From: a virus
Lineage: Duplodnaviria > Heunggongvirae > Uroviricota > Caudoviricetes
Direction: 5' to 3' (one strand)
Virus record (IMG/VR): IMGVR_UViG_2541047936_000008
Location: 1 to 24,775 of that record
DNA length: 24,775 nucleotides
Position numbers: made by a program. Within the stretch, counting starts at the first letter, position 1. Every line of letters starts with the position of its first letter. Of this stretch, positions 1-3,000 are shown in pieces.

Positions 1-3000
1 ATGTGGGTCAATAAGTATATTGACGATTGCACTGATGAGGATTTAAACGATCGTGACTTTATTGCATCAGTTGTTGACCGGGCTATTTTTCATTTCGCGA
101 TTAATAGTATATGTAATCCTGGGGATAATAAAGATGCAATGCCCATTGAACAATGTACTTTTGATGTAGAAACTAAGAATGACCTTCCCTCCACGGTTCA
201 GCTATTTTATGAGGAATCTAAGGATAATGAACCTTTAGCGAATATACATTTTCAAGCAATAGGTTCTGGTTTTTTAACGTTTGTTAATGCCTGCCAGGAA
301 CATGATGACAACAGCTTAAAATTATTTGCTTCGCTGTTAATTTCACTTTCATATTCTAGTGCCTACGCAGATTTATCAGAAACAGTGTATATTAATGAAA
401 ATAATGAGAGCTACCTGAAAGCTCAGTTTGAAAAATTATCTCAACGTGATATGAAGAAGTACCTGGGAGAGATGAAGCGTCTGGCTGATGGGGGAGAAAT
501 GAATTTTGATGGCTATCTGGATAAGATGTCACATCTGGTGAATGAAGGAACGCTCGATCCTGATATTTTAAGCAAAATGCGAGATGCTGCACCACAATTA
601 ATTAGCTTCGCGAAGTCGTTTGACCCAACCTCAAAGGAAGAGATTAAAATACTTACAGACACTTCTAAATTAATTTATGATTTGTTCGGGGTTAAATCGG
701 AGAAATAATATGTGAAGTTCTTCGATAGTATGGAAGGCATTATATAAAAGGACCCAATATTTATTGGGTTCTTTTTTCTCTATCAATGCTATTAGCAGGG
801 AGATATATCACCAGAGTTTAATGTGTGATTTTTTATTTATCGTCGAACCTGGATTGTTTATCATTGGCCTTAACAAAGTTAACGGCTAATAAGATTATTT
901 CCATCACTTCGTGAGAGCTTCATGCCTTGAGAGGATCTCAATTTTCTTTTGCAATGAGACAGGCGCTTCCTGTTGTTATGGTATAGTACCCCGCTATTGA
1001 GCCTCCTGAATAGTGATGCTGAATAACATAACCCCATGATATATCGATAAAATAATCTCTACATTTGAAAATGCACGGTAATTCTGAAATGCAAAAAATC
1101 AACCAAACCAGCGCAATGCCTGAAAAAACTGACGTTCACTGGAGTGGTCGGTTTAGCGTTGCACCAATGCTCGATAGGATGTACCGTTTTTGAAAAACAA
1201 GTAGTTATACACTTTGTGGGAGCCTATTGGGAACCCGGTGTTTTCATTTCAAGGTGTAATCCATGCGGGGCATCAGAATGAGATATAATGAGATTTTTAG
1301 TGTTCCGCTTGAGAGTCTATGATGCTTACCCTAGACGAGATAGGTCAATCTGTACGTAACAATATCCAGTTGATTATTGATCATGTCGGCTTACCTCTTG
1401 CTGTTGGTCCGCTCAGTGATGATGATTACAAGATTCTGTGTGGTGGCTATGGTGAGCTTGAATGGGACTATGCGTTAAGCACCTATGGCAACTCCAGAGA
1501 AAAGTATGAGTTCTGCATAAAACTTGTTCAGCAAGGTCGGGTTCAGGGAATACCATCAGGAGCAGCAATTTGTGTTTATGGGGTTGAAGAAAACATCTTT
1601 CGTATCCATATGATCGAAAGGTTTTCTAGAGAAGATGAATCTCACCCATTGAAAGGGCGCATGGTTTTACTCACTCTTATGAGTGCTTTTATATTTTGTA
1701 AAGCTGTTGAATGTAAAGTTGTCCACATTGTAGAGCCAGTACCAGAACTGGTGCAGTATTACGAGTCTTTTGGTTTCCGCATGGAACAGTGCGGTTATGT
1801 GATGTCTGCAGTCATTGATGAGCTGCAGGATATCTTTCTTAAATTTGCTCAGTAGGTATAGACGAGAAGGGTCTACAAATTGTAGGATACCCGTCCAGAT
1901 TACCTTAAAGGTACATCTATGGCAGTCGTTTTGTGCTTAAACTACTAAGAAACGATGTCACCAATCGACATGATCGATTGGCATAAGTTAGCTAAACAAG
2001 CTAGCTTTAAAGAGAGGGTTAGAGACGCCTTTACTGTCTCGGGAGTTTTCTATGAAAGATCAAAAAGCAACCAAGCCACAGGTTAAGTTCGACACAATGA
2101 AAGCATTCGCAGGTATGGGTGCTGCTGTTGAAGTTCTGATGAAGGCTGCTCCTAATGCGTTCACTCACGCTACTGTCTCTGGTAAAGAGCAGCAGGGTAA
2201 GCTTCGTCGTCGCAAAGCAGCATGATCATAGCTGGTGCTTTTTGAAAACCCGCCTTTAGGCGGGTTTTTTCTTTAGTGATGTTCTTTGCCCTTCTGTTTG
2301 CCTGTTCTGACCTGTTCCCACTCGATACGTCCTTCTTCTCGTCTTTTGTCTATGTATTCCGCAAGATCTTGAATATTGATGCAACGTTTTGCTTTTTGTG
2401 ATGTGCCGATGCGATATGTTGGAACGGGCAACTTACAAGCGTTTGCTTTTGCTTCTGCCGTGGCTGGACTCATACCAAAGTATTTTTGACTAACTGCTGA
2501 GAGTTCAATGTTTAGGGTATTGAATTCAGCCATCAGTAAAAACAAGGTATTCATATCATTTCTCCATCATAACCGGCTGCACCCGGTGAGTTACTTATTC
2601 ATTTCAATAATATTATTTTCTATCATTGATTTATTTAAAACCAAAGAAGGAGCAAGATGGTTGTCTATTTTAAATAATGCATAACTTTTAAACCGTTGGT
2701 GATATCCGTAACCAATAAGGATGCTAGAAAAATCTCTTAATTTATCTTCTTTAAGAACATGAAAATGAAATGGGTTGTCGCCATTTATGGACAATGAAGC
2801 ATCTATTATGCAGTATTTCTCTCCGTTGTCATTTGCATAGAAAAAAATATAAGACATTCTGTTTGTTAAGACAATGCCATTAAATTTTATTATGTCTGGA
2901 ATTATTTTGTTTTTCATATTTGGTGCCACATGTTTATTTTCAGAAATACATTTGATTTCATCTCCAGATGTCGTGATTATATAAAAATGAAACTTATCAG

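Follow-up and report, generated by a model that had tools for sequence, protein, structure and literature searches.

The dusA-associated integrases (DAIs) are tyrosine recombinases whose elements replace the 5' end of dusA, carry semi-conserved repeats at their attachment (att) sites, and occasionally use targets other than dusA; the nearest relative of these integrases is Rci (Farrugia et al. 2015, PMC4482086). For phage 1720a-02, integration 100 bp into dusA has been demonstrated experimentally, along with reads that contain the regenerated attP, and a seven-base core (TGCTCGA) is common to its attL, attR, attP, and attB (PMC6328086). RdfN, a member of the PrtN family that is encoded across attP from the integrase gene (int), was shown to be the excision factor of dusA elements (PMC8409611). 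Here we describe a 24,775-nt stretch of DNA from a tailed virus (Caudoviricetes; IMG/VR record IMGVR_UViG_2541047936_000008, positions 1 to 24,775), which we will refer to as the window. The window is almost certainly the yjbM-dusA-pspG region of E. coli, interrupted 104 bp into dusA by the genome of a temperate phage that was inserted by a dusA-associated tyrosine integrase. This integrase probably uses lambda-like arm sites, and a PrtN-type protein is its probable excision factor. The inserted element has itself suffered a deletion.

The duplicated start of dusA

The beginning of dusA is present twice in the window. The left copy belongs to a displaced native fragment that we call dusA' (1071..1193, + strand), which we delimited by its match to genomes with an empty site and by translation. 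The right copy (23362..23465, + strand) is a replacement 5' end supplied by the element, as judged from pairwise identity and from free phage DNA (see below). Bases 1071-1174 and 23362-23465 agree at 86 of 104 positions (82.7%), which bears out a preliminary description of this DNA that had reported the first ~105 bp of dusA twice at ~80% identity. That description also had the identity end at a shared core, and it does: the final exact run common to both copies is ATGCTCGA (1167-1174 and 23458-23465), and the outer flanks of the repeat agree only at chance level (12 of 40 bases upstream and 14 of 40 downstream). In a repeat search, the direct repeat that includes the two copies (1068-1184 against 23359-23475, 81%) was the longest in the window, and the runner-up family was 39 nt long.

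The right copy begins a rebuilt, full-length dusA of 345 codons (23362..24399, + strand). In a profile search, its product scored 581 bits against TIGR00742 and 560 bits against NF008774. Codons 1-35 of this gene are derived from the element, and from the core onwards the gene is chromosomal. Among the first 35 residues of the rebuilt DusA, 9 differ from the native protein (74.3% identity). The left copy is a stub: 34.7 native codons run to base 1174, the frame continues into element DNA, and a stop codon is reached at 1191-1193 after 40 codons. Genomes with an occupied site annotate dusA' as an incomplete tRNA-dihydrouridine synthase pseudogene. Upstream of dusA' is its native neighbor, the 3' part of yjbM (DUF2713 family; 1..708, + strand), which we recognized from the list of open reading frames (ORFs) and from the RefSeq annotation of matching loci.

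The boundaries of the element are exact. A three-way alignment of attL, attB, and attR places the crossover core of attL at 1167..1174, so that the element begins at 1175 on the left; it ends at 23457/23465 on the right, where the replacement 5' end terminates in the attR core. The insert is 22,291 bp long from core to core. Just 3' of the left core, on the P' side of the phage attachment site, bases 1175-1186 (TAGGATGTACCG) match the corresponding part of empty-site dusA (CTGGACGGACAG) at 7 of 12 positions. Because of this match, the phage's imitation of dusA appears to reach weakly beyond the crossover.

Empty and occupied sites in E. coli

We compared bases 1-1400 of the window with 5426 complete E. 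coli genomes and found matches in 4380. In 4037 of the genomes, the match covers 84% of the 1400-nt query, which corresponds to 1-1174, and it ends at 1174. These are uninterrupted yjbM-dusA loci with up to 100% identity over 1-1174, and an annotated full-length dusA continues beyond that point. The copy at 23362 is only ~85% identical to empty sites (3641 records are in the 80-90% band), so the start of dusA at empty sites resembles the 1071 copy and not the 23362 copy. Since the empty sites match the left copy and stop at 1174, the displaced native start is the left copy, whereas the insert supplied the right one, which is how the preliminary description had assigned them. Furthermore, a three-way alignment shows that the empty site of strain KMi025 is equivalent to the left of attL joined to the right of attR, with the switch at ATGCTCGA.

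Short probes for the junctions found occupied sites in ~660-740 genomes. About one in eight complete E. coli genomes bears an element at the dusA site, and Shiga-toxin phages are among these elements. Another ~1,040 of the 5426 genomes matched neither the native yjbM-dusA 5' segment nor either junction probe, although the body of dusA has matches in all of them. These genomes may have a divergent upstream region or a different start of dusA.

The attachment site in free phage DNA

If the two cores were recombined, attP would consist of 23100-23465 joined to 1175-1500. We found this predicted sequence, uninterrupted, in phage mEp460 (JQ182728; 96.7% identity over the full 692 nt). In mEp460, attP is bordered on one side by the integrase gene and on the other by homologues of the two ORFs at the left end of the window's element. 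Similarly, 22176-23465 followed by 1175-2600 is colinear, at 99.4% identity over 2702 nt, with a circular 43,671-bp replicon from E. coli CT01. Thus the excision junction that was expected at the ATGCTCGA core is contiguous in a phage and in a circular replicon.

The CT01 replicon (NZ_CP081794.1) was deposited as "plasmid unnamed3." It encodes an integrase that is 100% identical to the window's, and it has the contiguous attP and the same left-end genes. Judging from these features, it looks more like an excised or replicating circular prophage than like a plasmid.

The experimentally studied phage 1720a-02 (KF030445) has the same int-attP module. On the P side of attP, from the start of the integrase gene through the core, it is identical to the window at 193 of 193 nt, and its P' arm is identical through base 1235. 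The core that was reported for this phage, TGCTCGA, falls inside ATGCTCGA. Its integrase shares 361 of 365 residues with that of the window, as compared to 360 of 365 for mEp460.

The integrase and its relatives

The integrase has 365 amino acids (22176..23273, - strand) and matches the phage integrase family (PF00589, E = 8.4e-21). Its gene is divergent from dusA, with 88 bp between the two starts. The catalytic R-H-R-H-Y set (R222, H306, R309, H332, and Y342) does not vary among 16 aligned homologues, which come from Enterobacterales, Aeromonas, Plesiomonas, Gilliamella, and Orbus.

To describe the family, we used one genome per bacterial species and flanks of 2.5 kb. This gave 80 loci, of which 75 had enough flanking sequence to assess. 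In 55 of the 75 (Gammaproteobacteria), dusA is beside the integrase gene and divergent from it, and in most of these its start is ~90 bp from the start of int. For the other 20 integrases (52-65% identity), the 2.5 kb upstream does not include dusA, and these represent relatives with other targets. These 20 loci count against a strict link between the family and dusA: its choice of target is not absolute.

Outside of these elements, ~2,245 plasmid records match the integrase at less than 60% identity. Among the matches listed, identity is 25-33%, most alignments begin at residue 66-75, and one of the proteins is annotated as rci. The sole distant plasmid relatives, among the matches listed, are Rci-type recombinases, which are ~26% identical from residue 66-75 on. 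The record for mEp460 also carries a CDD note of INT_Rci (cd00796) on its integrase. Going by its sequence, then, the window's element is a member of the DAI family. The suggestion that the locus bears the signature of dusA-specific integrases is supported by the match to PF00589, by the 55 of 75 loci that are adjacent to dusA, and by the precedent of 1720a-02.

Excision and the state of the element

The window encodes a PrtN-family protein (2273..2554, - strand; PF11112, E = 1.7e-22) across attP from int, as in mEp460. By analogy to RdfN, this protein is probably the excision factor, that is, a recombination directionality factor of the RdfN type. The preliminary description passed over this gene, and also the fact that the element is the remnant of a deletion.

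Indeed, when the element is mapped onto a complete prophage of 40.8 kb, which occupies dusA in strain 873.10, a single deletion of 17.35 kb is evident. As identified by blastn against that prophage, the junction is at 9105..9108, with a 4-bp overlap. The deletion removed the late regulator, the genes for lysis, terminase, portal, capsid, and connector proteins, and the first 60% of the sheath gene. It fused the gene for a PerC/YfdN-like regulator from the early region to what is left of the tail sheath gene, its final 40% (ORFs 8915-9295 and 9178-9774), and the sheath ORF at 9178-9774 covers only positions 303-493 of the 493 in phrog_165. What remains, according to scans for protein families, is an early region (the PrtN-type protein, DUF2303/YfdQ, an S24 CI-like repressor, a CII-like regulator, and a replication initiation protein), then a sheathed-tail module (tube, tape measure, baseplate, fibers, and fiber chaperones), and at the right end a serine invertase, a DUF4145 protein, a DinI-like protein, and the integrase. 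With this gene content, the element is defective and cannot produce particles.

We also considered that the element might be an R-type tailocin, as it has tail-only structural genes and a PrtN-type gene. We rejected this because comparison to complete prophages shows that the sheath was truncated by the deletion and because the PrtN homologues in dusA elements are excision factors.

Could the element be beyond excision as well, so that the att sites are relics, the element is fixed and immobile, and the duplicated start of dusA is just a record of a past event? The loss of 17.35 kb of late genes would fit with this, and no complete E. coli genome in our collection contains the exact arrangement of the window over at least 80% of its length. 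Also, we did not detect a promoter for int. Scans for sigma-70 promoters and terminators across 22900-23600 returned nothing for either int or the rebuilt dusA, and by hand inspection, a conserved AAAAATA block in the spacer between int and dusA has no convincing -35 partner on either strand. The lack of a promoter call for the rebuilt dusA is a difficulty for our interpretation of the locus. However, the integrase is full length, has a complete set of catalytic residues, and is 98.6-99.5% identical to the integrases of phages that were isolated or induced. The PrtN-type gene, both cores, the five repeats that we describe below, and the gene for the CI-like S24 repressor are also intact. Because the recombinase, the likely excision factor, and the two att sites have all survived, the ability to excise may persist. 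We view a fixed relic as possible but doubtful.

Repeats on both arms of attP

The preliminary description noted GGGAACC-type repeats near both ends of the element. They are present, but the coordinates needed slight correction, to 1218-1236 (from 1216-1235) and 23293-23329 (from 23294-23328). The P' arm of attP (1175..1236) has two direct copies, GGGAGCCT at 1218-1225 and GGGAACCC at 1229-1236, which are at +43 and +54 from the core. We delimited this arm by its identity across elements with different cargo and by the covariation described below. The P arm (23274..23361), which we delimited from the sequence and from 51 related loci, has three copies of GGGAACC(T): an inverted copy, GGGTTCCC, at 23293-23300, and two direct copies of GGGAACCT at 23310-23317 and 23322-23329. 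All three are inside the 88-bp spacer between int and dusA. In total, GGGARCC occurs 10 times in the window, compared to an expectation of 4.7, and 5 of the 10 are in the two short stretches beside the att cores.

The arrangement of the P arm is conserved, but the motif itself is not. In the 51 related loci, the spacer contains two direct copies that are 11-12 bp apart, and most of the loci from Enterobacterales have an extra inverted copy ahead of these. The motif is specific to the lineage and may be GGGAACC, GGGGTGC, GGTGTAC, GGTGTCC, GGGATAC, GGGGCAC, or another variant. For the P' arm, we relied on phage records in which attP was either contiguous or could be rebuilt from the ends of the record. 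In all eight of these divergent attP sites (YeP2, IME1369_02, Kp4882-1, M16-3, C5a, ACA1, 1F53_PE004, and SMHB1), the motif that an element has on its P arm is found twice more, as direct copies, on its P' arm. In 6 of the 7 sites with a known core position, these copies are at +42/43 and +53/54 from the core. When we scored each P-arm motif against the P' arms, the true pairing had a total of 12 mismatches, as compared to a mean of 29 for permuted pairings, and a total of 12 was reached by the identity permutation only (1/5040). So, the earlier proposal that the repeats are candidate arm sites for the integrase is supported by the covariation, across lineages, of the motif on both arms.

The P' arm also ends where the second repeat does. 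Three elements with different cargo (the type shared by the window, mEp460, and O157; ETEC6334; and 1720a-02) are identical through the second P' repeat and diverge at 1235/1236. By this comparison, the mosaic boundaries mark the functional extent of the P' arm.

Which part of the integrase might bind these repeats? An AlphaFold model of the integrase, built from the 16-sequence alignment, has a mean pLDDT (predicted local distance difference test) of 81. It is predicted to begin with three strands (residues 2-10, 16-26, and 29-38) and a helix (41-58), with pLDDT values of 83-91. Past residue 58, the model continues with a linker that is poorly ordered and of low confidence, which leads to a helical domain for core binding and then to the catalytic domain. 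Using Foldseek, full-length lambda Int aligned to this model over 365-371 columns. Because the alignments with Rci begin only at residue 66-75, the N-terminal domain has no counterpart in Rci.

The sequence of the N-terminal domain follows the class of the motif. For example, the integrase from Xenorhabdus hominickii (motif GGTGTAC) is 89-90% identical to two other Xenorhabdus integrases (motif GGGGTGC) in residues 70-355, but just 74% identical in residues 1-58. When compared to an integrase with the same motif from an unrelated host, it is 84% identical in residues 1-58 and 77% identical in residues 70-355. More broadly, in pairs of integrases with 68-76% identity in the C-terminal part, the mean identity of the N-terminal domain is 77% if the motif is the same (n = 31) and 62% if the motif is different (n = 124). 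This pattern supports the binding of the arms by the integrase.

Alternatively, the repeats might be sites for the PrtN-family factor, or they might be operators through which a regulator controls the divergent promoters of int and dusA. Several observations are in favor of these roles and weigh against arm sites. The three copies on the P arm fill the 88 bp between the start codons of int and dusA, and because the promoters of int and the rebuilt dusA have to lie in this stretch, the repeats could serve in regulation instead of, or as well as, in recombination. The layout of the P arm, with inverted and direct copies, is operator-like, and a PrtN-type gene is always nearby, across attP. There is no significant sequence match between the integrase and an arm-binding domain: in Pfam, Arm-DNA-bind_4 matched one integrase homologue at E = 0.19, which is not significant. 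The N-terminal 67 residues, if modelled alone, had a pLDDT of 50.6, so that this model was unusable. Finally, the covariation of the N-terminal domain with the repeats may partly reflect physical linkage, because they are at most ~250 bp apart in attP.

However, the two arms carry a single motif, in copies that are 11-12 bp apart and have a constant spacing from the core, and this is how arm sites for an integrase are arranged. In lambda, directionality factors usually bind just one arm. The motif class tracks the N-terminal domain of the integrase better than it tracks the rest of the protein. Furthermore, the first 58 residues are predicted to form the strand-strand-strand-helix fold, with a linker after it, that an arm-binding domain should have. 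Rci, which uses simple sites, does not have this domain. We consider it unlikely that the repeats are sites for the PrtN-family factor or a regulator, and we propose that they are probably arm-type sites that are bound by the integrase.

If so, then the DAIs would be lambda-type heterobivalent recombinases with a fixed arm plan, in which the motif has been swapped repeatedly together with the N-terminal domain of the integrase. We favor this generalization, with somewhat less confidence than we have in the arm sites themselves. The plan may consist of two direct copies ~130-150 nt upstream of the core (with an inverted copy ahead of them in most Enterobacterales) and two more copies at +43/+54. 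The motifs that were swapped may include GGGAACC, GGGGTGC, GGTGTAC, GGTGTCC, GGGGTAC, GGGAGAC, and GGGGCAC. These elements would then provide a natural series for reading the code of arm recognition. Also, since the P-arm copies fill the spacer between int and dusA, integrase bound to them might couple the expression of the two genes. The word "arm" is absent from the texts of the two main papers on dusA-associated integrases (PMC4482086 and PMC8409611), and the covarying layout of five repeats appears to be undescribed. In the literature searched, dusA and arm-type sites come up together in only two papers, and their titles and abstracts mention neither.

A model for integration at dusA

Recombination between attP and attB occurred inside ATGCTCGA, the core that the two sites share. 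Immediately upstream of its core, attP has a phage version of dusA that imitates the first 104 bp of the gene. Integration fused this imitation, in frame, to the rest of the chromosomal dusA, so that the gene is whole; this end of the element is attR (23274-23465). The original start of dusA remained at the other end, in attL (1071-1236), as the stub of 40 codons. The integrase most likely acts like lambda Int, with its catalytic and core-binding domains at the core. Its small N-terminal domain would hold the five arm-type repeats, three on P and two on P'. The PrtN-family protein, which is encoded across attP from int, would be the excision factor.

Nothing in our data contradicts integration as the origin of this locus. 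A local duplication or gene conversion, without site-specific recombination, could by itself yield a bare direct repeat with 83% identity, but it is refuted by the thousands of empty sites that end exactly at the core, by the free phage DNA in which the second copy runs directly into the opposite end of the element, and by the recurrence of this architecture beside homologous integrases in many genera.

Cargo genes and promoters

At the left end of the element, two ORFs of unrecognized function are in the same orientation as dusA. The first encodes 178 amino acids and belongs to no recognizable family (1319..1855, + strand): we found no match to it in Pfam (even at E up to 10), NCBIfam, PADLOC, or the sequences in PDB. 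The second encodes 57 amino acids (2052..2225, + strand) and had no match in Pfam or PADLOC. Both have homologues in mEp460, and that of the 178-residue protein is encoded at the same place by attP. In the free phage, the genes in this slot are downstream of the phage's imitation of dusA.

From the P' arm to the PrtN-type gene (1237-2270), the element has a variable cargo slot, and the genes in this slot are co-oriented with dusA in all three of the sets that we saw. The window, mEp460, and O157:H7 have the ORFs for 178 and 57 amino acids; ETEC6334 has a Panacea-domain protein and two hypothetical proteins; and 1720a-02 has an ORF of 182 amino acids behind its own consensus promoter (TTGACA-17-TATAAT).

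Transcripts from the native dusA promoter might now run into these genes. A scan for terminators found a terminator-like hairpin after yjbM (746..775, + strand) and a strong hairpin after the second cargo ORF (2244-2269, + strand). Between 746-775 and 2244, the only other call on the + strand is a weak 5-bp stem at 1672-1685, within the 1319-1855 ORF, and this is probably a chance match. Because the cargo ORFs are co-oriented with dusA and only this weak stem lies between 775 and 2244, read-through from the native dusA promoter into the ORFs at 1319-2225 is plausible. We did not locate that promoter: a scan of 650-2400 found 4 promoter-like sites, as compared to 4.4 in shuffled sequence. There is a perfect TATAAT at 1284-1289, but without a good -35. 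For the rebuilt gene at the other end, there is experimental evidence that a related dusA element supplies a new dusA promoter (PMC8409611), but this is not simply transferable to the window.

Toward the right end, 18058-20795 is probably an invertible switch of the tail fibers that changes host range. It includes genes for a fiber and a chaperone (18058-19397, + strand), genes for an alternative chaperone and an alternative fiber C-terminus (19369-20210, - strand), and the gene for the serine invertase (20193-20795). The switch is flanked by a 20-nt inverted repeat that is 95% complementary (18342-18361 and 20156-20175). Between the invertase and the integrase are the DUF4145 gene (20822-21517) and the DinI-like gene (21866-22114), and the same pair is present in strain 873.10. 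The DinI-like gene is also common to CT01 and mEp460, and in CT01, the neighboring position has a gene for a restriction endonuclease. This region may be a second cargo slot.

Comparison with known systems

The main finding was already known, in that the int-attP module is almost identical to those of experimentally studied phages and the family was described in 2015. The covarying layout of five repeats is the sole part that goes beyond published descriptions, and it is a modest addition. For annotation, our results imply that the pseudogene at 1071-1175 is the displaced native start of dusA and that the dusA at 23362 is a chimera of phage and host. Because about one in eight complete E. coli genomes is occupied at this site, exact definitions of the att sites should aid the typing of prophages. 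The arm layout provides a testable handle on how an integrase recognizes its own attP, and it might aid the design of orthogonal integration tools.

Like the DAI elements of Farrugia and colleagues (PMC4482086), the window's element has a tyrosine recombinase that is divergent from dusA and is inserted in the 5' end of dusA. In both, the new 5' end keeps the first beta strand, semi-conserved direct repeats are present at the ends, and Rci is a relative. The att repeats described in that study are 21 bp, and the window's element is an internally deleted prophage; otherwise, nothing essential differs. With 1720a-02 (an Stx2d-act phage) and mEp460 (a lambdoid phage), the element shares the int-attP module and the PrtN-type gene across attP. 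In contrast to the window's element, these phages are complete and inducible and have other structural modules: mEp460 has a lambda-type side tail fiber, and the window has a sheathed-tail (myovirus-type) module that lacks 17 kb. Beyond the P' arm, 1720a-02 also differs in its cargo, which has a consensus promoter of its own.

Among better-studied recombinases, lambda Int has an architecture of three domains that the window's integrase is predicted to share, and both systems have repeated motifs around a short core and a separate, small directionality factor (a probable one in the window). However, lambda Int is just 16-17% identical in sequence, and the window's directionality factor is from the PrtN family, not the Xis family. 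Also, the core in the window is part of a protein-coding gene, for which the phage has to supply a new start, and arm binding is in our case a prediction. The Rci shufflon recombinase of IncI plasmids is ~26% identical over residues 66/75-365, but it is without the N-terminal domain, and it inverts shufflon segments and integrates no element. Finally, SXT, which is inserted in prfC, and IMEVchUSA3, which is inserted in dusA, are comparable in that RdfN, a PrtN-family protein, is the excision factor of dusA elements (Durand et al. 2021, PMC8409611), and the window encodes a probable counterpart. In contrast to our prophage, these are conjugative or mobilizable islands under the control of AcaCD, and the promoter of the rebuilt gene was mapped there.

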